The notes under the pieces were generated by a model. That model saw only the letters and a program-made list of their open reading frames with translations. It ran no database searches and had not been told where the DNA came from. Below are positions 6,129 to 58,278 of a stretch of 64,000 bases of DNA, one piece after another (positions within the stretch are counted from its first letter, which is position 1; every line of letters begins with the position of its first letter). This stretch comes from Rhynchopus sp. YZ270_cl-10 (taxonomy: Eukaryota): NCBI GenBank assembly GCA_964035575.1, contig OZ037837.1:1240001-1304000 (forward strand), given 5' to 3'. The position numbers were made by a program, and so were the translations under genes.

Positions 6129-6281
6129 GCTTGGTCAGGTGACTGACCAGGCTTTGACCAAGCTAAAAACATGACCAAGGGGGCTTGGTCATGACCAAGC
6201 CCCCCCTTGGTCATGACCGAGGGGGGGCCTGGTCATGACCAAGGGGGGGCTTGGTCAGACCAGGCCCCCCCTTGGTCCTGA
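6129..6281. repeat. Cluster of palindromic TTGGTCATGACCAA motifs separated by G or C runs
   Basis: GGTCATGACC or TGACCAAG repeated about 8 times in both orientations. Confidence 0.8.
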
Positions 6282-6347
6282 CGGGTAAAAATGCACGGTG
6301 GGGGGTTTGAAAACCCTGCAAAAAACACAAAATAAGAGCACAAAGCA

Positions 6348-7911: not shown

Positions 7912-9316
7912 CAGTGTGACACAGAATTAATGGCCGATGACGACATTTTGTAAAAATTGTTATATTATTCTAAAAAATAGGCAAAATTTGACTCATTTCA
8001 TTGCATTTTCAACTGGCCGTGTATGAAAAGTGTGTGTGTGGGGAAAATATTAACATGGAAATATCCCTTTTTGGTAAAAAAGGGTGTATGTGTAAAAAAA
8101 AAAAAATACAGTGTAGCAGTACAAACGAGTGGGTGCACAAAAATAAATAGAGCATGCATTAGTATTTTGTGTGCATTCCGTTGGAATTGCGAACTGCGTC
8201 TAGGCGTCGTGGCATTGACATGATGTAACGTGCAACGAAGCTATTGTCCATCTTGGACCATTCCTTGTTGATGGCACGTTTAAGTGCTGACACGTCTTTG
8301 GGCTCCCGTTCGTTGACTGCAGTCTGCAGCTTGGCCCACAGGTTCTCAATAGGATTGAGATCAGGGGAGTTGCCTGGCCAGTCAGCTTTAGGGAGGAACG
8401 AGAAAGGTTGGGAGGAGAGGAATGCTTGAGTAACGTTCGCAGTGTGGCAGGGTGCCCCATCCTGCTGAAACGTGTAGCTACTGTCAGGCAGGAGTTCTTT
8501 TATTTCTTTGAGCGCTTTCTGTAAGACGAGCGTACGGTACTTCTCTGCATTGAGAGCACCGTCATAGAAATAGAGCTTCGTCTTACCTCTGGTGGTGATT
8601 CCTCCCCAGACGTGAACCTTCTGCGTAGCCCTGACCTTATCAACGGTTGGGGGCGGCTCATCACCATCTGCAACCCAGACAACATCGTTCTTCTTGCTCA
8701 CCCGAGAAAAAAGCCAAAAGTCTTTTTCATCGGTGAACATCACCTTTGACCAGTCGGTGTTTCGATGCGTTTCAGCAAACTCTATCCGGGCAGTGATGTT
8801 CTTTTCCGAGAGCTTTGGTTTGCTCTTCGTTTGAACGGGCTTCAGCCCCTTCTCCTTCAGGCACCTGCGGACACTCTCCCTCGAAATCTGTAGTCGCGAC
8901 GCTACTTTCCTGCAAGACTGAAACCGCTTGCCCCGCATGTGTCTAACCACCCTATTCTTAACGGTGTCGGTGGTGGCCGATCTCTTGCGTCCCCTCCCTG
9001 GCTTGTCCGAAAAATTCCGCTCTCCAGCGCGGTACTCCTTCACCCACCTACCCAAACTCCTCTTCGCAACGTTCAGCAACTCCGCCACCTCATCATGGCT
9101 CTTACCGCCAACAACGACTAGCGACGCTGCCTGTAGGCGCAACCCTTCCCTCGTGGCCTCAGTGTTCACTTTACCCTTAACCATTATATTTTTGCTTTTA
9201 TTGTGTTCCTGGGCGTAAATATTTTATGTTTTGGGGGTGTTTTGAATATGTCCTTGTCAAAATTTGCCGTTTTTTTATAAAATGTCTTCATCGGCCATTA
9301 ATTCTGTGTCACACTG
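7912..9316 (-). mobile_element. Full-length Tc1/mariner (IS630-Tc1-mariner) DNA transposon, 1405 bp
   Basis: 29-bp perfect TIR CAGTGTGACACAGAATTAATGGCCGATGA, extending imperfectly to ~45 bp; TA on both sides (7910-7911, 9317-9318); single transposase ORF. Confidence 0.96.
8159..9184 (-). CDS. Tc1-like transposase, DD37E
   Basis: N-terminal HTH regions, GRGRKR linker, FTDEK, VWGGI, FQQDGAPCH, WPGNSPDLNPIENLW; 37 residues between second D and E. Confidence 0.95.
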   Translation of the reverse strand: MVKGKVNTEATREGLRLQAASLVVVGGKSHDEVAELLNVAKRSLGRWVKEYRAGERNFSDKPGRGRKRSATTDTVKNRVVRHMRGKRFQSCRKVASRLQISRESVRRCLKEKGLKPVQTKSKPKLSEKNITARIEFAETHRNTDWSKVMFTDEKDFWLFSRVSKKNDVVWVADGDEPPPTVDKVRATQKVHVWGGITTRGKTKLYFYDGALNAEKYRTLVLQKALKEIKELLPDSSYTFQQDGAPCHTANVTQAFLSSQPFSFLPKADWPGNSPDLNPIENLWAKLQTAVNEREPKDVSALKRAINKEWSKMDNSFVARYIMSMPRRLDAVRNSNGMHTKY

Positions 9317-15257: not shown

Positions 15258-17427
15258 AGGAGGCTTCCCCCCACAAAACAGGGCCACGTGAGATAGACGC
15301 GGTGTAGTGTTTCTCGTCCCTGCACCGAAGTAGACAGACTCGTGTTGCTTTTATGATACGCCGTTCCTCGAACACCGTCAGAATCGTGTGTCTCCCCACA
15401 ACGGCACGCTTGTGGTTTGAGGTGATTGTTTGCTGTGTGTTTGTTGGGAAAGGAAAGGAGGCGCCGATGATGGCAGACGCAGCTGCACCCACCTGAATGG
15501 GGTCAGAAGTCCGTCCCGTTGCAAGACACTGAGTACAGTAGGTTGTCCGCAACAGCAACGATCTTTCAAACTGAAACGTCCCCCCTTGCACGACAGTGAC
15601 GTCCTCAACGTGCATCGTCATGAGCTCTCTGCGGACGTTGTCTCCTTTGCGGAGCTGTTGTACGAATGCCACTGCAAAGTGTTGCTTGAGTCGCAGGGGG
15701 CGGGGCTGACAACACATGACCACGAGAAGATGCCTGAGGGGATGACGACCGCACTGTGGAGGTCGAAGCAGACCCTTCATGGTTGCAAGGCTATCTCCCG
15801 AAGACGTATCTGCTGAGGAACGTTGTGTGTCTCCCGAGAAGTGTTCTCAGAAACACTGATGGTTTCCCCATCCAAAAGTAGTGGCGAAGACGATCATGTT
15901 TCCAGCCATCCTAGCCTCAGTATCATAGCAAAGCACGAGGCCGTTTTGTACGTCCTGTGCCGTGTCTCAGCAGAGGCTTCTCCGCTTTGACTGGGCTTAT
16001 CAACGACACGCTTTGCGTCTTTGTGGTGGAAGGCTTTCTGTGCTCTGCACGGCAGTTCTTTTCGTGCGCATTGCTTGCAACAGCTAATTGGGGAAGGGAT
16101 GGCGGTCGTCTTTGTTAGGGTGAGACCACGCCTCACTGCCCACTGCTACAATGCTGTTTTTGGTTGGGAGGCAACTACCTGGTCTCACATCGAGGTGGAG
16201 ACTGGGAGGCTGTTGCGTCATGATATGGGGTGTGGTGCGCTGCTTCGGCATTGGTGCGTTGTGTCCGTAATGTGTATCTCTGGGAGTGCGGACGTGGGTT
16301 CAGCGGTGGCATGTTGTGCAGTCCGCATCTGTTTCAGTGATGCGTGTGAACACGGCCTGCGTCTGATTCCCCCACTTGGCGGAAGTGTCGCAGAACTGTG
16401 AGAAATATGGTTCTCTGATATTTGAGGATAAGGTTCACGGTTTGGGTTCCGTCTTGTGTCCTTCAGATATTATGGCAAAGACAACTGAACACGAGAGGCT
16501 TAGGTTCATCTCATCAAATTTACTATTTTCCGGTCAAAGGCCTCGTCATCGTCAGACGCTAGTGACGAGCGGTAAGGGTGACTTGAGTGACATCGATCAT
16601 TGTATTGAGCTTGTTTCATAGTGGTTCACTATTTGACACACAGTTGGGCATCTTTTGTGTGGTCCTGGGGTGGACCTCACAATGCACCACCGGGGTACGT
16701 TCCTCCAGAAACTCTATGAAGGTGTTGACCGCTCGAGCCGATGTCTCCTACCTGAGAGATTGCACTCCCTTTCACTTTGTGTTTGGAGAACTGTTGTTTC
16801 CTATTTAACACACAGTTGCGGCCGGTTGGAGCACTGTTGCTTGCATCCTATTTAACTCACGTTGGCAGTGAGCGCAGATGCAGACTATTTTGAAGCACAG
16901 TTGATACTCTTATGCGTCTTATTTAACACCCCGCAAATATTCGTTTCCTTCCCCATGTTTTTTCACTTCCCAGAGTACTCAAACAACACCCCCCAAAGGA
17001 GAAGCGTCGCGCCCCTCCGAGCCACACAGCAACCTACGTCCAGCATGAGCTTCTCTAGCTTTATGGGTCCACAGAAGCAGCAGCCTGTGGATTCCTGCAC
17101 TGGAACGTCGGGCCTACCCTTCTGAGAAGGGATGATGGCCGTTACAGCAAGAACGGAGGTTTTGTGACATACGCGCGAAGTAGGGCGAAGCAGTGAGGCG
17201 CGAGGTTCGACGTGTGCAGGTGACTGCGAGCTCAGAGGCACATGCAAAGCTGTACGTAGCAGCACAGTGTTGTTCTCCACGCATGACGTGGGACGGTGTT
17301 ATTGGCTGTGCCCGTCTCGAGCGGTGCACTGTTGCAGTTTTGCGTGCTTCTGGGATGTGGATTGAGAAGCATGCACACACACACACCCTCCACACACCAC
17401 ACACCTTGCAGGAAGCAACACACCACC

Positions 17428-20400
17428 ATGTTCGGCCCACATGAGCAGGTGCAAGCATACGCAAAGCAGCACAGCATCCTGAAGCTGGTCGACGAGCTTG
17501 TGAACGAGCTGCTTCAGCATAAGCCGTGCGACCCGTTGGCGCACCTGGCGTGCTACATCGACGGCCTGCGTGGGGCAGCGCCTGCGACGGACGTGGAGAA
17601 GAACAAGCTTGCGGCAGAAGGCAGCACTGCGGCGTGCGCAGAGGTGTCGCACACCTCGAGCACATCATCATCGCTCGAAGCGGCGCTGGGGACACTCTGG
17701 GACGCGTGCAGACCCAACCACGCGACGTTCAAGGAGCGTTTCGAGAAGGACGTTTCGCAGGGCCTTCGAGATGTGCTTGCGACAGTCTTCGCGAAGGCCG
17801 GGAAGGCGAAGGGGCAGGCCGGGAAGGGACAGGAGGCAAAGGACACACCTGTGCAGACACAACTGAAGTTCGACGCCTCAGCAGACGTGACGCAAGCAAA
17901 TGCGGGACAAAGTGTGCAGCTGGTGGACCCCTACAGCGCCGAGTACAGACCCACGCAGAGTGTGTCGGAGGTGGTCGACGGGCTTGCAGACTGGTTCGGA
18001 CCTGGACGGAAGCTGTGGCCGCGGAGTGCTGTGGACAGGGTGAAGCACAACTGCACCTTCATGCAGCACAAGCACAACTACGGGGAGGTGGCGGAGGTGG
18101 TGGTGCCGCTCTTCATCTACTCGATTGCGGTCATGAAGGAGTACACGTGGGCCTTCTGGGTGGCCTCGGATGGGCGCGGACGGTGGACGCCGTTCTCGTC
18201 GGTGCACGCAGTTGTGCTGGAGAAGGACTTCCTTGCGCACTGCACGAAGGACGGGGCACCCCTGTGTGGGGAGGACGAAGACCTGACACGTCCACGGGGG
18301 CTGCCGCTCGCACCACTGAACGGCACCATCACAGAGGCAAGGCGTGCGCTTGCAAGGGTTGCGGAGGACACGAAGGGTGCGGGCACCACCCCCAGCAGGC
18401 AGCCGGCTCGTGCCGCCTTCGAGCTGCCCACGCAGATGCAGGTGGTGTTCTGCGACGGGCGCATGGTGGGCGGCAGCAGCAGCGAGGGGGACGAACGGGG
18501 GCGTGGCTTTGCAGGGAAGGTTGGTGGGGTGTTTGCGGGCTGGGAGGGGCTCACGGTCTTTGTGAGCACGCCCTTCCTTGAGGGTTGCAAATGTCGTGAT
18601 GAGGTCACCAGCACCACCACCACGAACACGACCAAGGACGTGGCAAAGGAGTTCTACATAGCACGGTACAAACTGGCAGATGTGAGGGCAGAGTACGAGG
18701 CTGCTTTGCGTGCAAACACGCAAAGCACGGCGGATGCGGAGACACTCGCGAGCCTGAAGAAACGTGTTGCGCTGCACCCGTACTCGGACTCGGTTGCGTG
18801 GCTTCCGGCCCCGTCCTGCATCTTTGAAGGCCTCCACACTGCGACGGCGGACGTGCAGCGCACACAGACGATGTCTGTGTCTCTCGCACGACTGCCCCCA
18901 CCCGGTGTGCTGGAGTACTTGCAAAGCAGACGCACCTGTGAGCACCTTGAGATTGCCGAGGGTGGTCTGCACTATCTGCGTTCGGAGGATGCGTTTGCGT
19001 GCCGTGCGCGTGAGGAGAAGGTGCTGCTTGCGGGGAGGAAGGACAAGGTGGCGGGGACAGAGACAGCGTACGTCCGCTGTGACGACAGCTGCTGCTTCTT
19101 CTGTGCGGTGGGTGCGCTGAAGGACCGTTGCGTGCGCGAGAAGAACCAGCAGCAGTACGACAAAGGCTGCAAGGAAGACCTCGACGCACTGAGTACCGAG
19201 CACAAACAAGACTACAGCCCGTTCCAAGCGCTCGTGGCACACAAGGTCGCCATCGCCGTGCGTGAGGCCCCCGAAGGCCAGGCACCGACGCCGCTGACGA
19301 TCCTCCACGCTCTCGACATCCAGGCCGTGTACTGGTCCTCGGCAGGCGTGGCAGACTGGACACACGTCAAACAACCCCTGCACGCTTCGCTGTCTGGGAA
19401 GAACAAGTTCATTGCCGTACCTGGAGCAGACGTGCCACCGTGTGTGCTGTACAAATCCTGCTGCGAGTTCGCGAAGCAGCCGTACTACGTCTTGAACGCG
19501 TCGATGCGTGATGCGCAGAACAAGGCACACAAGACGCAGATCACAGTGACGCGCAAGGACAAGACGAGCGAGGTCTTCTGTGCACGCAGCGTCGCGTCGC
19601 TTGGGAAGGGTATGGGCACGCTCCGGGAGGTGGCACGCAAGCACGCGACCCTGAGGACCTGCCTCAGAGACCTGATGAAGCTGTCGCACCAGACGTGCTT
19701 CGAATCCGAGACGAGCGGGACGTCGGTCTGGTACACGTCACGCGACATCATCGAGGATAAGAAGAAGGACGACACCCTGCCGCGAAGCGACGAGGACTAC
19801 CTGAACCCTGTGCACCACAGCGGGCTTGGCTACTACCGGTACACGGCACGGTACGACAAGGAGGCACCGGAGTACATAGAACCAAGCACGATGAAGGTGC
19901 AAATGGGGGACTGGGTGTCGGGGCAGGTGCGGCCGCTGCTGTTCTACGTGAACGAGGCAATGAAGGAGATGTCGCCTGTGCTGTCGTACCGGGGGTGGCG
20001 GTGTGCGCCGGAGACAGAGCAGAAGTGCTACCGCGGGCTTGGGAACGCACGCCTGCCCCCTGAGCTCTACGCAACGGGGAACGTGGTGGTGTGGTCTGCG
20101 TTCTCGTCGACGTCGACGGACCAGGGCATCTCGCAGTTCTACGCCAGCTCCGCGAGCGGGATGACGGCGTCGGTCTTCATTGTGACAGGGTCGTCTTGCA
20201 GGCTGATCGCACCCTGGAGCAGGTTCGGCCGTGAAGAGGAGTGGCTGTTCCCACTGAACTCAATGTTCAAGGTGGACTCGATGCTGACGGAGGACCAGCA
20301 GTCGATTCTCGGGAAGAAAGACTTCCAGCTCTTCGAGATCTCTGAGGTCGACGAGCTGTCGATGGAGAAGATCCGCATCCGCTGCTCCCTGGCAAGCGCA

Positions 20401-23400
20401 CAGACGAAGGAGGTCGCGCGTGTGGTCTTCTCAGCAGTGTCTGCAGTGGACTCTGGGAACGGTGTTCTCGACCTTTCCCTGAAGAGCGCAAGCGAAGGCT
20501 GTGTGGATGCGAAGTGGGTGTACACAGTTGTAGTGAACTTCGACGCACTCCAGCTGTCGCCTGTGATGACAAGCAACAGCACGAAGCTTTGCACTGGCAA
20601 CGTGGCCGACAGCTGGAACAGTTTCCTGTCCGATGCCCACAAGCTGAATCGCTTCACCCACGAGCACCCCTGTGTGATCTTTGACAAGTCCTCGGAGGAG
20701 GGGCGGCAGGTGCTCAACGCAGTGTCTTTGGTTCTCGGCCTGCGCCACTCGAAAGCGCTCACGTTTGTTGAGGTGACGTGCCACCTGAAGCCCTCGAAGG
20801 CGAAGGACGCCCGCAGCCTGCAGGAGGAAGAGAACGCAAGCTCGGGCTACTACCAGCTGAAGGCGATGAACCCGACGGAGCAGTGGGAGGTGAGCATCGA
20901 GATGCGGCGTGAGGATGGCCAGGAAGGGCTTGCTTTTCTCGATGCAGGTGCTGTGCTGCTGCACAAGATCATCGCGAAGCAGGTGCACCTGGTGAGGGTT
21001 GACATCCGCAACAACGGTGTCGGTGTCGAGGGTGCGGAGCTCCTTCTGCAGGCGCTGCGTGTCAACAGGCATGTTGTGCAGCTCAGCATCTGCGACACTG
21101 AGCAGCAAAACCAAAACCAAAAGCAAAAGCAAAGACCTCTGCAGGTGCGTGACACACACACATGCGACGCAGAGGACGGGGACGATCCACACCTGGGGGA
21201 GGTTGCGGCACAGCGCATGATGCACATCCAGCAGGTCATCAACATCAGGTGTGCGCACAACAGAGGCACCCTTGTGTCAAGCACGTTCTCCGACCTGGGT
21301 GACACCTGGCCGCAGTGCGCCACGGAAGCGCTGTACGACGTGGACGTGGTGGATATGGCCTTCTCGGACCTGTTCGACACCCGCCAGCGTGAGGCTGTTC
21401 TCTTCATCGAACTCCTGCAGAAGGCGGTTGACGCACAGCACCACTCAGCACAACAGGAACTTGCTTCGAACAGGACGTACCCAAAGCTCCCCGGCGCGCT
21501 TGTTGCTGCTGCGCGTTGGTGCGACGCGTCGGTGATGACGTTGCTTCTGGACATGCAATGCGACGCCTGCGAGACGGACGCGTTTGGCGAAACACCACAA
21601 CTGAAGATGTCGCGCCGTCAAAACAGAGGCACAGAGAACTATCTTGATGCCTGTGATCGCTCGCAAGACCTGGCGCAGCGCCTTCACGTGTGTCTGGACA
21701 GGCTCCAGCCTGCAGTGCTCCGGTACGACGAGCCGCTGTGGAAGGTGAAGAACTTTGCGCTGGAGGTGATGCGGATGGCAGACGACCGTGAACACATCTC
21801 TCTCGCAGCTGAGCTGATCCGCAACGTGCGTGCCCGCTACGAAGCCTTCTTTGGGAACGAGCCTGCTGCGCTGTGCGCATCTGAGTACGCCGTGCACGTG
21901 GAGCGCATGATGCACGACATCATGGAAGTGTGCAAGACGTGCTCCGTCCTGGCTGTGCTGCAGTGCCCTCTCCGCCGTCAGGAAGCAAGCCTCTTCTGTC
22001 TCAAGGTGCTTTGCTCGCGTGGGAACGAGCTCTTTCCCCTTGTGGATGCAACAGACGAGATGCGTGCAATGACCGATATGCGCAGCACAGGGCGCAGGAA
22101 GTGTCAAGGTGCCGCTGGGTACCAGAGTTGCGCAAAATTGTGCAATCCGAGAAATCAGTTCAGACAGGAGCAGTGGTCTGCTCTTGCTGAGGAGGAGGAG
22201 CTTCCACGCAGAATGGACAAGAACGGAATCCGCTACTTCGAGCACGAAGTTGCTTTGCAGGACACGGAACCATGGTCAGATATGCAAGAGGCAGACGTGT
22301 GCAGCACGAAGCGCAGAATGTACGAAGGCAGCTACGTTACAAAGCAGCAGTATCTGGACACGGTGTGGAGCACAGCCGAGGAGGAGCCGAAGCAGATACG
22401 CAGGCAGAACGCTGACGGCTACTTTGTCTTCAAACACGACTGGGATGAAGCCGTGGAGGGCGGTGCGTGGGAGGACGGGAAGAAGGAGACACTGCCGACG
22501 CTTGTGGAGCAGTTGCGGCAGCCCTCTCTCAACCTGTACGACCCAACGGTGTTTGGGAGCCGCATTGAAACGGAGGAGAGCAGGGCCCAGCTGCACACGT
22601 GGTCGAGGCTGTGGGGTGCTGTGAACGCTGTGCTGGTGACAAGCACGGAGAAGGAGCGGGTGCTCTTCCGCAAGGTGGAGAATGTGGCGGACACTGTGCT
22701 GATCCACCACCTCCACCTGAAGCGTGGTGAGCTGTACTGCCAGCCCGACATCACTCTCTGGGATGTGGAGCGCCGCTACAGAAACCGTGCTGTGAAGCAC
22801 GAGAAGGACAGCAGAAGCGAGACACAGGAAGCAAGGACGAAGGTGGACTTCACGTCTGACTTCAACGACAACTCAGGAAGACTCTGGAAGGCGTCAGAGC
22901 GCAGATGGACAGGGAGGGGTGGCGAGGAGGCTGCGTATGAAGGCGAGCTTTGCTACGAACATGAGTTCAAAGACAAATGCATGCAGGCACACAAGCAGGC
23001 ACGCAAGGAGAGAGGGGAGGACGTGGGGTTTGATCTGAACACGTTACTCAGATGGGAAGATGCGAAGCCTGAGGACCCTTTCCTGACACACGTCCCTGGC
23101 GAGCAAGTTGAGGTGGAGACACGCAAGAAGAGCAGCAGCACCATGACAACGATTCTCTTCAGCGCGCACGGGAAGATGCACGGCGAGTGTGTGGGGCTGC
23201 TGAGCGACGGACACGACTTCCTCCTCCCTGCGCTTGAGATGTTTGTTGTGGAGGATGTTCAGGCACGTGGCACGTGCCTCCATGTCAGCCTCATCTCACG
23301 TGGCTCGCTGCTGCGCACGGACAAAGAGCTCCGTGCCTGGTGCTCTGGCATACAGCGGACTGGCCTGTCTTCTGTTTGGGGCAAGAACGGTGCTGCGGAT

Positions 23401-25645
23401 GAGTGTTTGCGTCCTGAGAACAAGACAGCAAAGGACGATACATTGGACAGGCAGAGCTTCGTGCGCACAGACGAGTGTGACGTGTTCTTCAGCCGTGAGT
23501 CTCAGATGCTCCACGGAACGGAACGGGAGGCAATGTTGCACGATCTGATGGACACTGTCAGACCTGTGAATGACAGCGCATCTTTCAAGATGCAGGGTGC
23601 AAAGGGACAGGTGAGGAACCATGGTGCGTGCACCCTGCCGGAGGCTGTGCCCAGTACGTACCGCCCAGGGAAGACGTTTTTGAGTGGGTTGAACCGCAAG
23701 AAGCGTCCTGAAGGGGATCACACTGCAGAAGGCATGCCAAGACCACACGGTGACGAACTCCCAAACATCCCGCACGTGGAACTCGCGGAGGATTGGGAGA
23801 AGGATATAGATGTGAACGATGTGGTCACTGTTTCGGGAGCATCCATCCAGGCCTACCACGACGAGCACACAGACGAAGACGCGTTCTTCAAGACGATAGT
23901 CAAGCATGCGCGTGACACACCTGAGGAGTGCCCCCCGCCTGTGAGCGATGTGTACGGAAGGAAGGAGTTCCGCATCACTGTCGGGGAGGTGCAGCAGCTG
24001 CTGAAGACAACCACGATAGTCACGTCGCCGTCCCTCCCACTGCGTTTTGTGCAGTGTCTGATCGGCTCGTTCACGTCTGCGAAACAGCGTCTGCTGTTCT
24101 TCAGAGTATTCCGTGCAACGTCGTTGCTCAGCATCGGCAATAAAAAAGATTGGGAACGTGCGAAACGGATTATCAGAGATGCTGTGCAAAGTTTTGTTGC
24201 AAGGGACGAACAAGGCCTAGACTCTGCACGTCGTGACCTGGATGCACGTGGCGATACGAGAAGCTACTACATCCATCTGCTTCTCCTCAGCCTTACTAGA
24301 CAACAACTTGAGTATCTGGACGGCAACCTTGATGACGACGGTGCAGAGCCTATTGAAGTCACCCGTGACAAGTTCACATCGTGGATGGCCACCGTACAGG
24401 CGGAACCTGCACACTACGGCTTCACCTCAAAGGAACATGCGAGACAGACGTTGGCGAAGTCGCTGGTCGAACTGAGCACAGAAATGTGCGTCTCGCAGCA
24501 GGGCTTCTCCTTCACCTCCGGCACGGACGGTGAGCACAGCCAGCTCTGTGAGAAGACGCACCACAGCATCGCCATCCTTGTGGCCACTGGGATGAACTTC
24601 TGTGACCGAAGACCCACCCTGCGTGAGGCACCAAAGTACTTCGTGAGAACAGCACGTGAAGGAACAAAGGCACACGAGGGCTGGACCTACTTCCAAGAAG
24701 GGAAGGAACGTGAATTTGTGGACCGTCTGAAGGTGCTGTACACATGCATCTTCGAATCTGCAAGGAAACAGCGTGTGCGGAACATGTGTGCCATCCCTGT
24801 GTATCTTGCTACTTATTCTGCTCGCCTTGGGTTTGAGCTGAAACTTGAAGTTGCAGAAATGTACTTGCGTGCGCAGTTCGAACTCCTTGCAGAACAGGAT
24901 TGGGGTTTTGAAAACGTATGCATGCTCTTTGTCTTGCTTTGTCTCACTTCTTGCTCTTTCATGTATGCGATACTGTCCTCCCCTCCTGCAACTAAGAAGG
25001 AGGACAGTCAAGCTGTCTGAATGGCGGCCACACTAAAGCAACAGATTATCAAGAACAAGAAAACAACAGCAGCAGAAAACCAAAACCCCATCTTTGTTTC
25101 AAAGACTTTATTGTGTTCCTCTTTCACATTACCTTTAAATCACTGCACAACAGTACTGGTTGAGGGCTCAGGATGACACCGATATGGCACGCCGCATCTT
25201 GAAGAAAGGACTGCACGAGTGTGGCGACTACAACAACGAGGCACAGGGGTTGTATTTGAGGTGCAACATCGTTTTGCACAAGAAAGACGCGAAGTTTCTT
25301 GCAGTACGCCTCGCGCAGCTGAAGAAATCACCTTCGCTTTTGTCCCCATCTGAATCGCCGGCACTGCTGCAGGGACAGCACGGCATGTTTTGGGAGGAAG
25401 CGAGGGATACCTGGTACACGGACGGAGCAGACTGGGCGGCCACATCGACAGGTGCGCTGATGAACTACAACATTTCGAAGAAGGCACTTAACCTCGACTT
25501 TTCTGCATTGAACAGCACCAGCTCCGTTGCCGATGAAGGTGATGAAGACTTCGCTGCAGTTGGAAGACGGATGAATCGGCCGTTGCGGGCTTCGCGTTGC
25601 AGTGGAGGAGACGATAGCGCAGCTGCACTGAACGGACGTGGCTAG
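17428..25645 (+). CDS. Giant multidomain protein: RIIa/Dpy-30-like docking helix, R-S-E ADP-ribosyltransferase, RI-type LRR, ankyrin-like segment, degenerate second ART-like region, macrodomain-like C-terminus; predicted intron 24916-25153
   Basis: 7.5-kb open frame from ATG 17428 (YAKQHSILKLVDELVNELLQHKPCDPLAHL); ART motifs CYRG (~20026), FSSTS (~20101), REEEWLF (~20230); IRNNGVGVEGAELLLQAL; GTATGC..ACAG phase-0 intron joins in frame to ORF 25154-25645. Confidence 0.82.
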
Positions 25646-32100: not shown

Positions 32101-33192
32101 GGATGTACGTTTCGAGCAGCGCAGCGCAGAGAAATGAAATATCATTTTTTTTTTTTTTAAATGCCACTTTTCCATTTTTTTTCCAATTCCATTTTCCCCA
32201 CCCCAATTATTATTTACTTCCCCTTTTTTTGTTGTTCTGTTTCAGCGTCTATTTTCTTTTGACGATGAAAAAAAAAGTGAAGTGCAAGAAACGAAAAAAT
32301 ACAATTGTATTTTTGTGGACTTTCTTTAAGCAATACAAAGCCCCTAATGTCCCCATATATTTCGCGACAATTTTCTGTGCTCGGGTCCCTTTCGAAAATA
32401 GCCGTACCCTCGGTATTAGATGCAGGTTATTCCTAACTCTGGAGCCTTTTTGCCGAAATTTCAGGGGCTCCGCTACCGTATAAAGTTCTGTTGCGGCGCA
32501 ACAGAAGTCTAAAAAAAAGAAAAAAAAAAAAAAAAAAAAATCCCATGGTTGAACCACGGGAGTACCATGGGGAACTGGGTTGCTGACCGCACTATCCAGT
32601 CTGTACCTCAATTTTTTTTTGCCTGCGGCGCCATTTTTCCTTTTTTGCTCCGCAAAAAAGGATTCTATGTGTGACACTGTGTTGTAAAAAAGCTAGATTC
32701 TTACACCGTACCCTACATTTTTTCGCCTGCGGCGCCATTTGTTTGATTTTTTTTGCTCCGCAAAAAAAAAAAAATTACAGTTCCCTATGTTCCCAATGTC
32801 CCTGGTCAGCAGTGCAGAAAAATTTTTGGGCACAAAAACAGCTAGCGCAGGGTGAAAAAAAAAACCCCGCAACAGAACTCAAAAAAAATCTGAAAACGTA
32901 GCGGAGGGGCTGCGAAATTTTGAAAAAAAAAAAAAAAAAAAGTCGAGCCTTGGGCTAAGTTGAACAAAAAAAAAAAAAAGAAGGATTATATTTTGTGCAA
33001 CCAAATATCAGCCTTTTTGTTTTCGGCTAGCCAACTCTGCAACCGCTTAACGAAATCATACGGTATGATTTCCATGCGATACAAATCGTTAACATGACAC
33101 TTTAAAGAATTTATAATTTCTCGCCTTGAGACTCTACGACCTGGCGGTGGGCCCGTCTGCGATCGATCTCATGCGCCTTGATGTGTCTCTAC

Positions 33193-33241
<49 letters not shown>

Positions 33242-33558
33242 CTAGGTGGTAGAGACTAGCCAAACCCACCTTCCCCCCCCCCCCCCCCCCCTCCCCCCCT
33301 GAGAAAAAAAGCCCCCCCCCCCCCCACCCTTGCCTCTTTGTCTCGGTTGGGGTGCTTCCCGCCCCTTCCGGCTCTCCGCATGCCATCTTCTTCGTCCTGC
33401 CATGGCACTGGGTCTGCCTGGATGAGAACTACTTACCTGGCTGTGCCGTCACGACACTGTTTCTGACGGAGAGAACGTCTGGACTGGGCCTCTGGGTGTC
33501 TACCTCTACTGCTAAACATTAAGTAATCTATTCGGACTACCTCTACTGCTACTACTGA

Positions 33559-34188
33559 CCACTCTTGCACTAGGTCTGCCTGAGTGAGCATCTGGTTTAG
33601 ATCACTGGATGACTACTGCTACTGCTACTGCTACAATAACCACTCTTGCACTAGGTCTGCCTGAGTGAGCCTGGTTTAGATCACCGGATGACTACTGCTA
33701 CTGCTACTGCTACAATAACCACTCTTGCACTAGGTCTGCCTGAGTGAGCCTGGTTTAGATCACCGGATGACTACTGCTACTGCTACTGCTACAATAACCA
33801 CTCTTGCACTAGGTCTGCCTGAGTGAGCCTGGTTTAGATCACCGGATGACTACTGCTACTGCTACTGCTACTGCTACTACTAACCACTCTTGCACGAGGT
33901 CTGCCTGAGTGAGCCTGGTTTAGATCACCGGATGACTACTGCTACTGCTACTGCTACTGCTACAATAACCACTCTTGCACAAGGTCTGCCTGAGTGAGCC
34001 TGGTTTAGATCACCGGATGACTACTGCTACTACTTCTGCTACTACTTCTTCTACTACTTCTGCTACTACTTCTGCTACTGCTAGAATACTGCTATTGCTA
34101 CATCTAACTCCTCTGCACTAGGTCTACCTGGTTGAGTGCGACTTGTGATTGCTAAACCGTTCACGACACGTGATCTGCCTGGATGAGA
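33559..34188 (+). repeat. ~80-bp tandem repeat (about 6-7 visible copies) in the 5' region of the retrotransposon
   Basis: Unit CCACTCTTGCACTAGGTCTGCCTGAGTGAGCCTGGTTTAGATCACCGGATGA(CTACTG)nCTACAATAA starting at 33559, 33640, 33719, 33798, 33884, 33969. Confidence 0.93.
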
Positions 34189-34388
34189 NNNNNNNNNNNN
34201 NNNNNNNNNNNNNNNNNNNNNNNNNNNNNNNNNNNNNNNNNNNNNNNNNNNNNNNNNNNNNNNNNNNNNNNNNNNNNNNNNNNNNNNNNNNNNNNNNNNN
34301 NNNNNNNNNNNNNNNNNNNNNNNNNNNNNNNNNNNNNNNNNNNNNNNNNNNNNNNNNNNNNNNNNNNNNNNNNNNNNNNNNNNNNNNN
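34189..34388. other. Assembly gap, 200 N
   Basis: N run. Confidence 1.
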
Positions 34389-34395
34389 TCACACC

Positions 34396-35853
34396 ATGGA
34401 TACCCTGCGTCTGGTGATGAGTGAGATGGACGTCCTGCGCCAGTGCGCTGTCGACAAGACGCCTCCTCCACCTTCCTTCTCCACTGCTGTCTCCGCGCAG
34501 CTCAACGACGCCTACGACTTGGTTGTCAGGTCCGAGCACGCGCCTGACGACTCCCACGTGCGCTCCGTGGCCGCTTGTGTGGTGTGCGAGATAGTCGCTG
34601 CCAGGCCTGCGTCATCCCCCGCGCCCTCCATCGCTGCCATCCTGCGCATCACTGCTGTTGTGACTAAGTACAACCTGGTGCACCTCGCAGAGCTTCCGGC
34701 GGTCCTTCCTACCCCCGCTTCGTTGTCGACGGACGGCTTGCAGGACGGTGACATTGGCCTTGTCCTCGCGACCCTGGCTGCCATTGCCAAGACTGCCGCT
34801 GCCGCCCCTGCCACCACTACTAATGCTTCGTCCTCCTCCCGCGCCCCGCGGAAGACGATCAACATCGTCCAGCGACTGCGTGAACTGGGGTTGGAGAACC
34901 TGCCGGAGCTTCTTCTCCCCAGCCAGGACCTCGTGCGGGCCATCCAGCTCAAGCGCGAGGACGGGTGCAAGCTCCCCCTGCAGCTGGACCCCAAGGGTAA
35001 GATTTTGTTCCCCCCCAATGCCGCACACTCTGTTTCTTTCGTCCCTTCTTCTCTAGACTTGAACGAGCAAGTGGTAGATGCGGCGGGGCTCGCCTACACG
35101 GTTGAGGGGGTACGTGAGGCCAAGCAAGCACTCCTCCTTCAGACTTCGGCGAAGTTGAAGAATGAAGTCCTCCCCCCTCTGCTACACTCTCTTGTCCGCG
35201 CCAGGCACGCGATAGCCTTAATCGTCTGCGAGGCGGTGGCACCACGCGACTACCTACGTCTCCTCCTCCTAGTCACCTCCATTATGCCTATTGTAGCGAC
35301 ACATGCTATGCTCCAGAACCGGGGGACGCGGGCTTGGGTCTCCACCACCTACGAGTCGTGGATTTTCCAGCGAGTCCACGAGTCTTCGGCGGAGACCACC
35401 GTTTCTGATGCGCTCTCTCTTCTTCAGAAGCTAGACGTAGATAAGATTCGGCATCTCGACTTGTCCGGCTCCGGTATCGTCGAGAGCTCTGCTGGTGAGG
35501 AGTACTCAGGTGGTGGCTACACAGGTGGTGGCAACACAGGTGGTGGCAACACAGGTGGTGGCAACACAGGTAGTGGCAACACAGGTAGTGGCAACACAGG
35601 TAGTGGCAACACAGGTGGTGGGAACTCAGGTGGTGGGAGGTCAGGCCGTGCACGCCGTACCCGACCGGCCCCCTCCTATTCCCCGTACGAGCCGCCGCTC
35701 CAGCATCCTGCCCCGTATGCGCCGCCGGCTTTCGAGGTCATCAGGCCCTCCGACGCGAAGGGGCGGAAGGGGAGCAAAGGGGACAAAGGTGACAAAGGCA
35801 CGCCTAAGACCCAAGGGAGACATGCGAAGGGGAAGGGCAAACGCCAAGAATGA
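34396..35853 (+). CDS. Gag-like ORF1 of the YR retrotransposon
   Basis: First ORF of the element; GGGNT/GSGNT 15-nt repeats and basic KGRKGSKGDKGDKG tail; start could lie in the gap. Confidence 0.7.
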   Translation: MDTLRLVMSEMDVLRQCAVDKTPPPPSFSTAVSAQLNDAYDLVVRSEHAPDDSHVRSVAACVVCEIVAARPASSPAPSIAAILRITAVVTKYNLVHLAELPAVLPTPASLSTDGLQDGDIGLVLATLAAIAKTAAAAPATTTNASSSSRAPRKTINIVQRLRELGLENLPELLLPSQDLVRAIQLKREDGCKLPLQLDPKGKILFPPNAAHSVSFVPSSLDLNEQVVDAAGLAYTVEGVREAKQALLLQTSAKLKNEVLPPLLHSLVRARHAIALIVCEAVAPRDYLRLLLLVTSIMPIVATHAMLQNRGTRAWVSTTYESWIFQRVHESSAETTVSDALSLLQKLDVDKIRHLDLSGSGIVESSAGEEYSGGGYTGGGNTGGGNTGGGNTGSGNTGSGNTGSGNTGGGNSGGGRSGRARRTRPAPSYSPYEPPLQHPAPYAPPAFEVIRPSDAKGRKGSKGDKGDKGTPKTQGRHAKGKGKRQE

Positions 35854-38040
35854 CTGCCCCTCGCATCTCCTCTCCCTACACCCGCTTCCATTTACACGCC
35901 CCTCCCTCCGCCCGATAGCCTCCTGCATAAGGTCTGGCTCCGATCTGACGCACTCCTTCCCGAGCGCACTCCCGATCCCGATCTTGATGAACCCATCGCT
36001 ACTAATATCCCACCCCGCCTCTCACATACTTTCCTGAAGCAAAAAGGGCTCTACGCCACTGTAGAAGCCTCTTCCTTTGAAGACCACCTGAGATGCGTCT
36101 CTTCTCTCGTCATCGACCCGGTGACCCTCCCTGACCTTGATTCCGATTTGGTGGCGTGCTGTGCATCTTACGCATCGCGAACCGCGCCGCAGAACAGGGC
36201 TTTTCGGAAGGACCGGATCAGTTATTGGGAGTCCAGGGGTTCTTCTCTTCGCGCCAATATACCTCTCTTCAATTCCTACTTCGATCCCTCCCATCCCGCC
36301 AAGGACATTGCGATGCGGATAAACGTCCCTCTCGTCGAAGAGCTTCTCCTTGCGATGGGTGCCGCCGCTCCGGGGGTACAGAATGAGTTCGTCAAGCGTC
36401 TGGGCTTCGGCTTCCCTGTTGTTGATGACCTCTCTGAGGTGGGTGTCTTCGACCCTAAGCTCAGCCGCAGTACGAAGAAGGTTGTGATCTCGTCGAAGTC
36501 CCTTCTTGTCACCCATGAGGCTAGCGTACTTCATTCTCTGCGTCGGCGTTGCGTTGAAGATGGTGACCTTCACGAGATTAGCTCACAGCTTTCTGCGGAA
36601 GTCGACAAAGGCTGGCTGGAGGGTCCATACACTCCTGAGTCCCTCCCCGTCGACTCCTTCATCCCCATCCGTCGCTTCATCGTGGCGCAAGGACAGAAGC
36701 GACGTGGGTGCGATAATGCGCGACCGACGAACAAGGGCACACGCATCCACACACCTATTTCCCTGTGCGGAGTGGACAATGCTGTGGCCACGGCGCTGTG
36801 CTTGCAGTCGCATGGTGTCCCCAAGCTTGCTATGGCTGTTCTCGATCAGAGCGATGCCTACAAGTCGCTGATCGTTGACGCCACGCAACGCCGCTACGCT
36901 GTGATTGTCGCGGTGGACCCCGTCTCACTCCAATTGCAGTGTTTTCTGAGCAACGTCCTCTGCTTTGGGACTGAGAGCGCGGTTCTGGACTACAACGTGC
37001 TCTCACGCTTCGTGGTTTGCACCGCTCGCAGACAGTTGGGCATCCCTACATCAGGATATTTCGATGATTTCCTCCTAATGGGCAGCGAGGACGACGCTGA
37101 GTCGATGGCGGACGACTTCCAACACCTCTTCTCGAACGTCATCGGCCTTGTCTTCAGGGACGCCAAAAAGCGTGTAGGTTCGTTGTTGAAGTACCTAGGC
37201 GTCTGTATTGACTTGTCGGCCCCCCCCCTGATTACCTGTCGCATAGCTGATGACCGACAGTGCTCCCTGATTGCGAAGATTGAGTCCATCCTGTCCGCCA
37301 ATTCCCTCTCCTCCACCGATGCTGCAAAACTGCTAGGTCAACTATCGTTTGTCCAGCAGAATATGTGTGGTGCCGTGGGTAGAGCATATCTTCACCCTTT
37401 GTATTCGAGACAGTACTCTAAGTCTCACTTTTTAGTTCTTGGAGCCCGCCTGGAGGGGGCTCTTGTGTGGTGGTTACACGCGCTCAAGCGCTCTACGTTT
37501 TTCAGAATAATTGACCCTCGTTTTATTTCCTCTCCATGTTCACCCCTTTGTGTTTACACGGATGCCTCCTTGGGCTTGTTGGGTGTTTGTATTTTGTACA
37601 AGCAATACCGTTACTATGGCGGCTGCTTGTCAGCCCTGACACATCGAGAGGAGGCGAACATCCAATTATACGAAACGGAGGCCGTACTCTCGGCACAATG
37701 TTTCTGTAACCATTTCTTCTCCTCCCTTTTCCCCTCCCTCGACCTCCCTTACCAGCAAATTCCCCAAGTGTTTTTCGTTGATAATGAGTGTGCTCAAGTG
37801 ACCCTTGTAAAAGGGTACGCTAAACGCATTGTTATTAATGCTATGGTCCGATCCTTCTGGTCTGAGTCGGTCTCATCTGGGGCCTCTCGTGTGTGGCTGG
37901 AGAGGGTTGCTTCTGCAGCTAACATTGCGGATATGCCGTCGCGAAGTCTGGGTCGCATTCAGTGGCTAGAGGAACGTGGCTTCCGTTACCTTAAGAACTT
38001 TGAGAGCGTTTTCGCTTCGAGAGAGTTCCACGAATGGTAA
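35854..38040 (+). CDS. Reverse transcriptase - RNase H (pol), in frame with gag
   Basis: KRRGCDN, LDQSDAY, LCFG, GYFDDF, KYLG; RNase H VYTDAS, LYETE, FVDN, NIADMPSR; frame is open from the gag TGA onward. Confidence 0.93.
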   Translation: MPLASPLPTPASIYTPLPPPDSLLHKVWLRSDALLPERTPDPDLDEPIATNIPPRLSHTFLKQKGLYATVEASSFEDHLRCVSSLVIDPVTLPDLDSDLVACCASYASRTAPQNRAFRKDRISYWESRGSSLRANIPLFNSYFDPSHPAKDIAMRINVPLVEELLLAMGAAAPGVQNEFVKRLGFGFPVVDDLSEVGVFDPKLSRSTKKVVISSKSLLVTHEASVLHSLRRRCVEDGDLHEISSQLSAEVDKGWLEGPYTPESLPVDSFIPIRRFIVAQGQKRRGCDNARPTNKGTRIHTPISLCGVDNAVATALCLQSHGVPKLAMAVLDQSDAYKSLIVDATQRRYAVIVAVDPVSLQLQCFLSNVLCFGTESAVLDYNVLSRFVVCTARRQLGIPTSGYFDDFLLMGSEDDAESMADDFQHLFSNVIGLVFRDAKKRVGSLLKYLGVCIDLSAPPLITCRIADDRQCSLIAKIESILSANSLSSTDAAKLLGQLSFVQQNMCGAVGRAYLHPLYSRQYSKSHFLVLGARLEGALVWWLHALKRSTFFRIIDPRFISSPCSPLCVYTDASLGLLGVCILYKQYRYYGGCLSALTHREEANIQLYETEAVLSAQCFCNHFFSSLFPSLDLPYQQIPQVFFVDNECAQVTLVKGYAKRIVINAMVRSFWSESVSSGASRVWLERVASAANIADMPSRSLGRIQWLEERGFRYLKNFESVFASREFHEW

Positions 38041-38616
38041 TTCTCCTTCGGACCCACCCCCTTCCCTCCCTTTTGTGTTTCTCCCCTGTCCTATCTACAG
38101 TATATAAAAAAAAAAAAAAAAAAAGCGGCTCACCCTTGCTCACCTGTTCTACCCTCTCATCATTCCTTGGCATCATAGCTATGTCGTTATCGCTCTTCCT
38201 CCTTCTCGATCAACTCCTTGCCTGCGTTGGGATATGAAAGCCAGAGATCTGCGTTGGGGATTTCATTATCTCTGAAGCTTTCTGGATTTCTCAAATTATC
38301 GTAGCAGTTCAGATCTCGAATTTCATCTAAAGAAAGAATTTTAGACGAGATCAAAACTCGCACGATTTTTCCCATCGCAGTTGAGCGATTCAGTAAGCTC
38401 AATCAAACAAAGGTTAAAGAGTTTGGCGTTACGAAAACAAAAGAAGGATTATATTTTGTGCAACCAAATATCAGCCTTTTTGTTTTCGGCTAGCCAACTC
38501 TGCAACCGCTTAACGAAATCATACGGTATGATTTCCATGCGATACAAATCGTTAACATGACACTTTAAAGAATTTATAATTTCTCCCGCCCACCCACTCC
38601 AGAGTTTGCATACACG

Positions 38617-39780
38617 ATGAACTCCGCTAACCTAATCCTTTCGAACATCACGGCGGATCAAGTGGTTACGCGCTTGACAAACGACTTGTGCAACAGTGAC
38701 GCTCGGAGGCGTGAACCCCGGTTAAGCCTCAAGCGTAAGATCGAGGAGATGTGTGCAGGTAGCGTTTCTGATGCTAGAGCTGCGGCTCAGGATGCAGCCC
38801 AACGCCTCATTATCTTCTCGATCTCCCCGGCGTCGTGGTATACCTACTTCACGGCGATACGTGCATGGGGATCATATGCAACAGCACTAGACATCCCTCA
38901 CTTCCCCATTAATCCCGTGGACTTCAGTGGTTTTATCGCCATCCACAAGTGCAAGGCGTACGCTGAGACGAACATCAGTGCACTCCAGAAGGTACACCGC
39001 TACTTGGGTAGTGACTGCAATCTACGGACTGCTGTGGTGTCTGAAACCCTCAGAGGTCTCGCGTCACTGAAGGAGCGCTCTGGCCAGAAGGACCCGATCT
39101 GCTCTCCTCTTCTTGACAAGATGGTCTTGTGCCCAGCCATGCTGTCCCATATAACACGGCAACATTTCCAGTTCCTGTGTGTACTATGTTACGTCTTCCT
39201 CCTCAGGTGCCGAAACGAAGCCATTGACCTCCGAAGAGGTGCGCTCGATGACGCCCCCCACACTGCGCTCAAACGGATCAGGGACTCCCAGACCCACAGT
39301 TCTGTTTTCTGTTTTCAAGGCCAACTTTTCATTGTACTGGCTAAGAGAAAGAACATCAGCACCGGTGAGGTACTGTCACGTGGGTGTACGTGTGCCGGAG
39401 TCGAACAAGCGGGTTGGAGGAAGACCTGTCCGGTCCACATCATCTGGCCCTACATTCGTGATACGGTATCCTGTGGTGAGAAGATTTTCTCGTGCTCCTA
39501 TGTCCACTTTCTTAAGGATGTTAAGAGCAAGGCTTCTGCCCACGAGGATCCCTCCCCAGCCGGTTACGGTACGCACAGCTTTCGTAGAGGCGCAGCCCAA
39601 GATGTGTCCATTGCTAACCCAAATTTAGCGATACTCCTAAAAGCGGGGAGTTGGAACTCTCGATCGTTCAAGGACTACATCTGTTGGAACAAACTGGGAC
39701 AGAGGGCTATGACGGACATCGTCCAGGATCCTAACCTCCACCCTGGCCTGGACAGTAGTGACAGTGAGAGTGAATACTAG
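38617..39780 (+). CDS. Tyrosine recombinase
   Basis: FLLRCRNEA (R), KRKN (K), CPVH, THSFRRGAA (HxxR), GSW, FKDY (Y). Confidence 0.95.
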   Translation: MNSANLILSNITADQVVTRLTNDLCNSDARRREPRLSLKRKIEEMCAGSVSDARAAAQDAAQRLIIFSISPASWYTYFTAIRAWGSYATALDIPHFPINPVDFSGFIAIHKCKAYAETNISALQKVHRYLGSDCNLRTAVVSETLRGLASLKERSGQKDPICSPLLDKMVLCPAMLSHITRQHFQFLCVLCYVFLLRCRNEAIDLRRGALDDAPHTALKRIRDSQTHSSVFCFQGQLFIVLAKRKNISTGEVLSRGCTCAGVEQAGWRKTCPVHIIWPYIRDTVSCGEKIFSCSYVHFLKDVKSKASAHEDPSPAGYGTHSFRRGAAQDVSIANPNLAILLKAGSWNSRSFKDYICWNKLGQRAMTDIVQDPNLHPGLDSSDSESEY

Positions 39781-40084
39781 GTTTACTGTCCATTATACAT
39801 CAATATGTCAGAGTGATCATTTTGTCAGACTCTTTTACCAACTATGTTATTTCTCTTTGGCTTTTTTTCGCGCCCCACCCTGGGGATTTCATTATCTCTG
39901 AAGCTTTCTGGATTTCTCAAATTATCGTAGCAGTTCAGATCTCGAATTTCATCTAAAGAAAGAATTTTAGACGAGATCAAAACTCGCACGATTTTTCCCA
40001 TCGCAGTTGAGCGATTCAGTAAGCTCAATCAAACAAAGGTTAAAGAGTTTGGCGTTACGAAAACAAAAAAAAAAAAAAAAAAAA

Positions 40085-41665
40085 GACAGGCAAAAAATCA
40101 CGCAAATTTACTGTGATTGTTTTCCGCTCAAAGAGCTGCATTTCCGAGTCAATCCCGGTTTGTGGTGGAGGAAAAACGGAAAAAACAGACAAAATTTCAG
40201 TGACTTAAACAGCCACTATGTGACCTGCAAGAGTTCACCTGGAATTGGCGTGAAATGCACCTGGCATTTCGTGACAAAATCTGAGAAACTTGGAATGAAA
40301 GCTCTTTCTCGATCCATTGTGTGGTGGTGCATGGCCGCTCCTGGTTGGTGGAGTGATTTTGTCTGGTTGATTCCGTTAACGAACGAGCTCACCTGGACCT
40401 CTATCACATGATCCCGATAGGATCCATTGCTTAATTTTTTAGCGGATTTTGGGGGTTCATTTCGGGCGTTCTCAAATGACCCTTTTTTTGTTTGTGTTTT
40501 TGTGTTTTTTTTGTAAGTTTGGGCTTAGGTTCAGCTTACACTTTGTTTAGTGGCAAGGTGACGAAAGCACAGAGAGTCTTGGGTTCATCTTGTAAACCAG
40601 GCTTCGCGCTAACTTTTGGAAAAAAATCTGAAAAATCGTCTTTCGGGACCAAAAAAACGCACCTCAAATAGTTGTGCGTCAGGGGGTGAAAAAACAGTGT
40701 TTTGTGGCATTTCCGAGCCAATCCCGCGTTGTGGTGGGGCATATTCGGGAAAATGGACAAAATTTTAGTGACTTAAATTTTCACAAAATGTGAACCCATA
40801 CTCTTAAACAAGGGGCATTTTCAGGTCTGAAAACCCAAATTCAGATGGAATTGTGGTGTTTTGACTGGGAACAGGTAGCGCCGCAGGCGCACGGTACCCA
40901 ACTTTTGTCTTTTTATTTTTCCCTTTTTTCTGCTTTCTTTTGATTGCACGAGCCGATTGCTCTCCACGGTGGGGTCACATGTGTGCGCAAAAACACTCTA
41001 AAGTACTCTGAACGATGAGATTCCTCTGGTTTTAGTAAGGAAACCCCTGTTTGCAAAAAGTGCGTAAATTTCCTGTGGCTTTCTCCCGCCAAGAGGTCGT
41101 TTTGTTGCATTTCCGAACCAATCCCGGATTGTGGTGGGGGATGTACGGAAAAATGGACAAAAATGCAGCGACTTAAAATTTGACAAAACATGAGCCCATA
41201 CTCGTAAACAAGGGTTATTTTCAGGTCTGAAAACCCAACGTACTGAAGAAGCTATCGGTAACGTAGTGATGGCGGTGGGGTTTCAGTGACCACAGAGAAG
41301 AGTGAGAAAACCCAGGACGGTTATGGCCTCGGAGGGGGTGTGCCCCATGGCGTCCTAATCAATCTTTATCCGTGAGGGAGGGGGGATCATCCTCAGGGGG
41401 GATGTGGAGTCGTACTCAAAATAAAATGAACTGTACATAAGTACATCGTGTTTAAACATAAAGGAGGGTAGGAACAGGTAGCGCCGCAGGCGCACGGTAC
41501 CCAACTTTTTTCTTTTTTTCTTTTCCCTCTTCTCTGCTTTCTTTTGATCGCGCGAGCCGATTGCTCTCCACGGTGGGGTCACATGTGTGTGTGAAAACAC
41601 TCTAAAGTACCCTTACTATGAAATATGAGATTCTCTGGTTTTCTTAAGGAAACCCCGGTTTGCAA
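40085..41665. repeat. Diverged tandem-like duplications of a repeat module
   Basis: GCATTTCCGA..CAATCCCG..TTGTGGTGG..GGAAAA..GACAAAA at ~40138, 40707, 41107; GGAACAGGTAGCGCCGCAGGCGCACGGTACCCAAC plus ~150 bp at ~40868 and 41471. Confidence 0.8.
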
Positions 41666-41736
41666 AAAAAAAACGCACCACAAAAATATCCAAAAATCCC
41701 GGGACAAAGGACAGAAGTTAGCGCAAAGCCTGTTGT

Positions 41737-58023: not shown

Positions 58024-58278
58024 AAGGGCTTCTCTTCAGCAGTCCAGGGGTGTGCTGTAAACTGCGTTCTGAAAAGTAATCTAGAATTCGAAGAGAGAGA
58101 AAAAAACACACCCACGTAGCAAAAGTGGATCTCCTGCGTGCGGCTGTCGAGAGCCTAGGCAGTACACCCACAGGGGTACCTTCTGTTGCTCTTCTTGCCG
58201 TGGGTATCCTCTCGTCACGCCCACATCCTCGTAACACATCTGCAAAAGGGATAAAAAAAAACTTTTTACACTAGTAAG

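Follow-up and report, generated by a model that had tools for sequence, protein, structure and literature searches.

In a 64,000-nt stretch of DNA from Rhynchopus sp. YZ270_cl-10 (contig OZ037837.1, positions 1,240,001 to 1,304,000; called the window in the following), a tyrosine-recombinase (YR) retrotransposon carries a first open reading frame (ORF1) and a pol frame for reverse transcriptase (RT) and RNase H (RH) that are separated by an in-frame TGA codon. This ORF1-pol junction is real, conserved and non-canonical. Judged by sequence comparison, UGA readthrough is its best-supported mechanism and a reasonably probable one. The first-pass annotation of this DNA had proposed a Gag-Pol fusion made by readthrough; the in-frame UGA, the kept position of the stop and the lack of a conserved AUG speak for this proposal, while the fusion itself we infer, and a rival explanation by splicing stands.

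The junction reads ...AAA CGC CAA GAA TGA CTG CCC CTC GCA..., with the TGA at 35851-35853, so that the in-frame stop closing ORF1 in the context GAA-TGA-CTG was verified from the sequence. Downstream, the next 728 codons of this frame contain no stop, and the first in-frame ATG, at 36313 as also given initially, comes after 153 of them; the 89 open codons counted at first were too few, as that figure reaches only its own end coordinate 36120. In 20,000 base shuffles, an open frame of 153 codons arose by chance in 1.7%, while the first 27 codons were open in 72% and the first 75 in 18%; close to the stop, openness of the frame alone is weak evidence. That ORF1 and pol share a frame is a 1-in-3 chance event. 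GAA accounts for 3 of the 485 ORF1 codons and CT for 14% of the dinucleotides in the next 100 nt, and the exact GAA-TGA-CT context is a match of about 1 in 1000 that was picked after the fact. The 8-mer GAATGACT at the junction occurs nowhere else in the window. Reassignment of TGA to a sense codon was rejected because host ORFs terminate in TGA: three of five long non-element ORFs checked end this way (at 4680, 25020 and 63348; the others end in TAG and TAA), and the genetic code is therefore standard. Two out-of-frame ATGs (35987 and 36093) lie ahead of 36313. Also rejected were the +1 frame and a −1-frame ORF of 22 codons starting at ATG 35850 and overlapping the stop, as neither is conserved in a sister family (by eye). 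The features of the element are as follows.

32971..33122, + strand: repeat A1 (5′ half of a split direct repeat), 152 nt, 99% identical to 38434-38585, preceded by an A-tract.
33195..33245, + strand: poly-T tract followed by AG (33244-45), resembling a spliced-leader acceptor upstream of ORF1; a putative function, from its sequence.
33537..34046, + strand: tandem 79-86-nt repeats in the leader.
34189-34388: assembly gap of 200 N between the leader tandem repeats and ORF1.
34396..35853, + strand: ORF1, 485 aa, from ATG 34396 to TGA 35851-35853.
35848..35856, + strand: junction GAA-TGA-CTG.
35854..38040, + strand: pol ORF, 728 codons, with RT (YFDD) and RNase H, ending at TAA 38038-38040.
35855..35884, + strand: codons directly behind the stop; the sister family aligns here colinearly and differs at 12 positions.
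35862..35869, + strand: possible 8-bp helix, 5′ arm, whose pairing partner would be 36090-36097 (a weak lead).
35885..35951, + strand: nucleotide-conserved island with a C-rich tract and AGs at 35917-18 and 35930-31, encoding a WLR motif.
38255..38445, + strand: repeat B1, 191 nt, 99% identical to 39881-40071.
38434..38585, + strand: repeat A2, joined to B1 via a short A-run and modelled as the circle junction.
38575..38602, + strand: pyrimidine tract with an AG (38601-02) that lies 14 nt ahead of the YR ATG; likely the YR frame's own acceptor, by its position and sequence.
38617..39780, + strand: tyrosine recombinase ORF, 387 aa, with motifs LRCRNE, HSFRRG and GSW...Y.
39881..40071, + strand: repeat B2 (3′ terminus), continuing into an A-tract.

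For conservation of the stop, sequencing runs were searched for further copies. Seven of 18 runs contain at least half of the element's words, and six runs were compared at the junction: X1 to X5, which come from three studies (one possibly of the same source as the window), and X8, which has no junction coverage. In X1, X2, X3, X4 and X5, contigs bridge the TGA with no other letter there; as contigs drop rare variants, this shows the common form only. A further copy of ORF1 (P0008) has one more GGNT repeat and ends at the same residue. The sister family, present on two contigs each for its ORF1 (P0009, 57% identical) and its pol (P0002, 82% identical), the longer contig having equal length in both cases, ends ORF1 with GKGKRHE where the element here has GKGKRQE. 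Thus, a sense codon at this place, which would mark a copy-specific nonsense mutation, occurs in no copy seen, and the sister ORF1 stops at the same codon. The position of the stop is fixed among the copies seen and kept in the sister family, and it is not a copy-specific lesion. Because P0009 stops at this codon although its tail is otherwise variable and its identity is 57%, an accident shared at one codon by two intact families this diverged is unlikely.

The same comparison bears on an old nonsense mutation in a formerly single ORF, with copies that are dead or mobilised in trans. Gene models P0023 and P0025 of Amoebophrya present ORF1, pol and YR as a single protein, and two TATE copies of Bodo saltans are single-ORF (PMC6681497; here and below, published work is cited from those portions of its text that were available). 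The joined models, however, may be intron artefacts, as the Diplonema papillatum models P0004, P0014 and P0022 appear to be, and all five joined proteins (P0004, P0014, P0022, P0023, P0025) were rejected as natural fusions since they look like predicted-intron models. An old lesion would also have to be reconciled with a stop that keeps its position in a family whose ORF1 has diverged by 43%, with intact frames and with repeats that are 99% identical; it appears largely refuted by P0009, and we hold it to be very improbable. A search for longer fused ORF1 proteins gave 0 of 7993 candidates, a weak negative, as the known joined models P0014 and P0023 were also missed.

Evidence that translation continues directly behind the stop comes from the sister DNA. 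A sister contig in four runs, identified by 30 following letters that match P0002, was aligned over 35885-35951 with 4 differences in 67 nt, and the sister DNA is ungapped against 35855-35951. Its 30 letters before the island read x-P-S-A-S-P-L-L-P-P in the pol frame, against L-P-L-A-S-P-L-P-T-P here (by eye). Of nine full codons, six keep their residue, five of them via a third-position change, and the other frames keep 2 of 10 and 2 of 9 (by eye). Over 35855-35884, 7 of the 12 differences fall at third positions (P=0.024; from one sequence pair over 30 letters, with C/T changes making up 7 of the 12). This pattern points to translation of the codons just after the stop in the pol frame. Sister P0002 itself is a separate protein of 705 aa starting at pol residue 28. 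DNA of relatives was also sought in metagenome contigs (0 of 188 pattern matches with query A3, 0 of 17 with query P0033), viral contigs (0 of 167) and genome contigs (0 of 115). As side observations, a third, more distant family is present at about half the depth of the sister in X1 and X4 (35345-35450 and 36196-36241), its letters being unlike P0009 by eye, and at 36395 and 37239 in pol, none of the compared contigs has the letter of the window; the former position gives K, against T in P0001 and K in P0010.

The N-terminal stretch of pol before the first AUG was analyzed for signs of being part of the protein. Met154 is replaced by K in P0002 and by E in D. papillatum P0003, while aa 75-153 are identical at 58 of 79 positions to P0002 and at 28 of 77 to P0003. 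Of 149 distant representatives, 7 were detected at E<1e-3 with a profile of aa 1-153 alone, including P0022 from D. papillatum, and 0 of 149 in the reversed control. Distant relatives again show the motif KQ[KR]G (aa 64-67), and some of them W[LI]R (aa 29-31). AlphaFold predicts aa 1-65 to be disordered and gives aa 71-160 a predicted local distance difference test score (pLDDT) of 82-98, so that aa ~70-153 appear as a conserved helical extension that is predicted to be folded. A pol start at ATG 36313 was therefore rejected, since Met154 is not conserved and this start would cut off a folded conserved region; for the same two reasons, a spliced leader with an AUG start for pol is disfavoured. 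An unconserved Met154 behind conserved residues implies that, in this family, ribosomes come into the pol frame ahead of about residue 65 and without an AUG.

According to the readthrough reading, a minority of ribosomes would decode the UGA as an amino acid, which would yield mostly ORF1 protein and a little ORF1-Pol fusion. The signal would be UGA-CUG with upstream AA, perhaps aided by the island or by the 8-bp long-range helix. The fusion would stay uncleaved, as a protease motif is missing, with RT tethered via a disordered linker of about 65 aa and the ORF1 tail, and YR would be translated from its own AUG on a separate trans-spliced mRNA. In contrast to pol, the YR frame has a pyrimidine tract and AG 14 nt before its ATG. 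The 8-mer GAATGACT is strictly conserved at the gag-pol stop of the elements Tj1, Tcry1 and Tosmo1-3 (bioRxiv 10.1101/2022.12.06.519325), and transposition of Tj1 is abolished once its gag-pol stop is removed (PMC4600332).

Several observations weigh against readthrough. Strong contexts in the literature are UGA-CUA(G) and UGA-CGG (PMC3159437, PMC12233894), and the gag-UGA-pol junction of Tca2 gave no readthrough in a reporter (PMC2194720). A stable local structure 3′ of the stop was not found in four downstream windows (z-scores of +0.1 to +1); one of eight fold lengths reached z −2, as did 5 of 35 background windows. The sister's in-frame UGA-C is probable rather than seen, as its visible letters begin at 35855, past the stop and base 35854. 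P0009 and the sister DNA keep the last ORF1 residue E and the TG at +2/+3. The last ORF1 residue of D. papillatum is R where the element here has E, and the annotated pol of that species starts with a Met some 75 codons deeper in the frame, so that the junction context is not shared at that distance. The third, lower-depth family gave no aligned piece across 35690-36095. Finally, the best-conserved DNA is the island with its two AGs and not the stop context (4 differences in 67 nt, as opposed to 12 in 30 nt; Fisher P=9e-5), and the first residue of P0002 could be encoded by GTG or by ATG; an ATG would sit directly behind the AG at 35930-31.

These last two points lead to splicing into an AG of the island, either by excision of a cis-intron whose donor lies in the ORF1 tail, which takes out the UGA in frame, or by addition of a spliced leader followed by a non-AUG start (CUG 35923). 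The island is 94% identical between the families, compared with 80-85% for the pol core, and is also better conserved than the pol core at P=0.001-0.017; as it encodes the W[LI]R motif of distant relatives, however, this conservation is partly at the protein level. The pyrimidine fraction of its C-rich tract and AG is 0.71-0.75, against 0.79 before the YR ATG and 0.68 before a host gene. In-frame donors exist in the ORF1 tail, e.g. at 35685 and 35715 (GTATGC) to 35917, but P0009 lacks the Tyr codon that follows the 35715 donor. The leader version requires a non-AUG start in the window, whereas the sister, if P0002 starts with ATG, would have its start directly after the second AG. In D. papillatum, virtually every mRNA is trans-spliced and about 41% of the genes contain introns (PMC10161547); the supplementary files searched for that paper give orthogroup rows for DIPPA genes only and nothing on splice sites, the splicing sections of Additional file 1 lying outside the search. 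Splicing leaves unexplained the shared frame, the stop position, the Tj1-like context and the coding pattern of the codons from stop to AG, which would be intron or outron. We regard it as unlikely, though clearly not negligible.

Coding from the first codon after the stop, together with the TG kept at +2/+3 in the sister, would also be explained by termination at the UGA and a restart at, or scanning to, the adjacent CUG, resulting in free Pol and no fusion. This would fit the absence of a protease to release RT from a fusion. The rare GAA before the stop is not needed for such a restart, and the overlapping AUG at 35850, in another frame with 22 codons and not conserved, would compete with it. 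To our knowledge, restart at a non-AUG codon has little precedent, which counts further against it, and we judge it improbable.

RNA structure around the junction was analyzed for readthrough stimulators and for changes of the UGA itself. No Rfam match, selenocysteine insertion sequence (SECIS) elements included, was found in 32900-40500 at E<=1, and the long-range pairing partners of the island showed no standout. A perfect 8-bp helix of 35862-69 with 36090-97 starts after an 8-nt spacer from the stop, a spacing like that of viral stimulators; its null rate was 29 of 2000 and 35 of 1102 (1.5-3%). The three changes of the sister in the 5′ arm would still pair given the P0002 residues, while one other pair would break (by eye). 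We consider this helix a weak lead that was found after the fact. A change of the UGA on the RNA, by A-to-I editing that would turn it into a Trp codon, or its decoding as selenocysteine has in its favour a hairpin across the stop (z −2.2 in one of five windows), but G-rich Gly/Lys codons opposite C-rich Pro codons pair by composition alone, and the sister is unable to form the same stem (by eye). The missing SECIS or other Rfam match also speaks against these readings, and of all explanations for the UGA, editing or selenocysteine appears the most improbable. Apart from the junction, the RNase H region (37600-37950) has three neighbouring windows of 150 nt that fold at z −2.1 to −4.0, a possible RNA element near the 3′ end of pol.

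The element is a split-direct-repeat YR retrotransposon with the order A1-ORF1-RT/RH-B1A2-YR-B2. It is placed in the order DIRS and set against PAT, Ngaro and VIPER/TATE by layout and domains only. It looks intact, all frames being uninterrupted apart from the ORF1/pol UGA. RT and RNase H gave weak Pfam matches (RVT_1, E 0.018; RT_RNaseH_2, E 0.18), and the predicted pol structure matches the RTs of cauliflower mosaic virus (CaMV), human immunodeficiency virus 1 (HIV-1) and murine leukaemia virus (MLV) with E 3e-14 to 1e-12. Pol ends after RNase H, 214 nt ahead of B1; no methyltransferase domain was found in the ORF or before B1, and the protease motif D[ST]G[AS] was searched in pol and is absent. 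For the YR ORF, 17 of 18 PDB matches are Cre or Tre (best E 0.08), while a Pfam search gave no match, so that the recombinase assignment is at the level of motifs, with the Tyr located by eye. The closest named relatives are from D. papillatum, with identities of 55% for pol, 30% for ORF1 and 44% for YR, which by itself makes a diplonemid host likely. Parts of YR are 28% identical to Amoebophrya, and more distant pol relatives are found in Amoebophrya and among unnamed metagenomic proteins.

Both outer ends of the element (32966-32979 and 40066-40085) lie in A-tracts, and the B1/A2 junction (38434-38441) has a short A-run. As far as sequence can tell, such an arrangement would fit a recombinase that inserts a circle into poly(A). 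A further, templated A-run is located at 38107-38124 between the pol stop and B1. Relative to the element body, summed contig depth in the B and A repeat regions (38255-38585 and 39881-40071) is raised as much as about 100-fold in X1 and 30- to 50-fold in X4. Several contigs also bridge large internal deletions, e.g. 38508 to 39865 and 38600 to 39635. Together, this suggests many short non-autonomous derivatives or solo repeats.

ORF1 consists of a helical N-terminal part, GGNT repeats and a basic Gly/Lys tail closing with GKGKRQE-TGA. Its homologues are P0008 and P0009, and its start Met is common to P0009 and D. papillatum P0013. The predicted structure has a pLDDT of 46 and is confident for aa 1-135 only. 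Searches for a capsid, a zinc knuckle or any family or fold gave no match, nor was a CCHC pattern present, and the best Atlas score was 0.80, under the threshold of 0.9. The name gag used in the first-pass annotation therefore fits the position upstream of pol and finds no capsid or zinc-knuckle match; for ORF1, it is a positional label only. The low-complexity tail (window 35650-35690) contains an R...PY motif kept in all three ORF1s as SYSPY, RYQPY and RFTPY, which we take to recall a nuclear localisation signal of the PY type.

Elsewhere in the window, an ORF at 3466-4680 combines ubiquitin-like and leucine-rich-repeat parts, a simple tandem repeat near 6.3-7.2 kb spans 6211-7317, and a Tc1/mariner-type DDE transposase ORF lies on the minus strand at 8159-9223. 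An intronless ORF of 2577 codons at 17287-25020 has a weak ADP-ribosyltransferase match (Pfam ART, E 1e-4), and a WD40-repeat ORF of 1697 codons is located at 58255-63348. Directly 3′ of the element, 40137-41700 holds a degenerate 400-600-nt repeat.

Readthrough between gag and pol is already known in long terminal repeat (LTR) elements and gammaretroviruses, and the mechanism is not new. Full-text literature searches, with subscription reviews outside their reach, found no report of it in YR elements. In the portions available, RT translation in DIRS-order elements is not addressed in PMC6681497, PMC7192593 and PMC8547959, PMC12440569 has nothing on it, and the word readthrough is absent from the text of the Cafeteria burkhardae Ngaro paper (PMC8547959). 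We tentatively propose, and give slightly less than an even chance, that programmed UGA readthrough controls the ORF1:RT ratio in a widespread protist YR lineage (diplonemids, Amoebophrya and unnamed marine protists), with the signal GAAUGACU convergent with fission-yeast LTR elements and an uncleaved ORF1-RT fusion as product. If true, this would be programmed readthrough in a euglenozoan that otherwise separates its genes by trans-splicing, would answer how YR elements express an RT lacking an AUG, and would make a third class of retroelement known for gag-pol readthrough. The conserved in-frame UGA in a context identical to Tj1 offers a direct, small test of RT expression and not a new principle.

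MLV uses a UAG with a pseudoknot, and no such local structure was found at the junction here. Tca2 of Candida albicans and the gammaretroviruses share the in-frame gag-stop-pol arrangement, but the junction of Tca2 alone showed no reporter readthrough (PMC2194720). Closest at the junction are Tj1, Tcry1 and Tosmo1-3, Ty3/gypsy elements of fission yeasts, in which a TGA likewise separates gag from an in-frame pol without usable AUG, and which have the identical 8-mer. They are, however, LTR elements with a protease and a DDE integrase, whereas the element here has split direct repeats, a YR and no protease motif; given these architectures, the match of the 8-mer would be convergent. In layout, the nematode form of Pat1 and Kangaroo (PMC4157794) share the internal B1A2 (38255-38585) upstream of YR, but the element here has neither a methyltransferase nor an ORF1 zinc finger, and its YR is not inverted. 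Ngaro elements, e.g. of Cafeteria burkhardae (PMC8547959), have the same order of ORF1, RT/RH and YR, split direct repeats and no methyltransferase; they differ in that B1A2B2 lies downstream of YR, while YR here stands between A2 and B2 (PMC8547959, PMC4157794). VIPER and TATE of kinetoplastids (PMC6681497) are also euglenozoan YR retrotransposons with split direct repeats, but their B1, A2 and B2 lie together at the 3′ end, their ORFs follow the order gag-like, YR and RT/RH, and the nearest pol relatives of the element described here are diplonemid instead.

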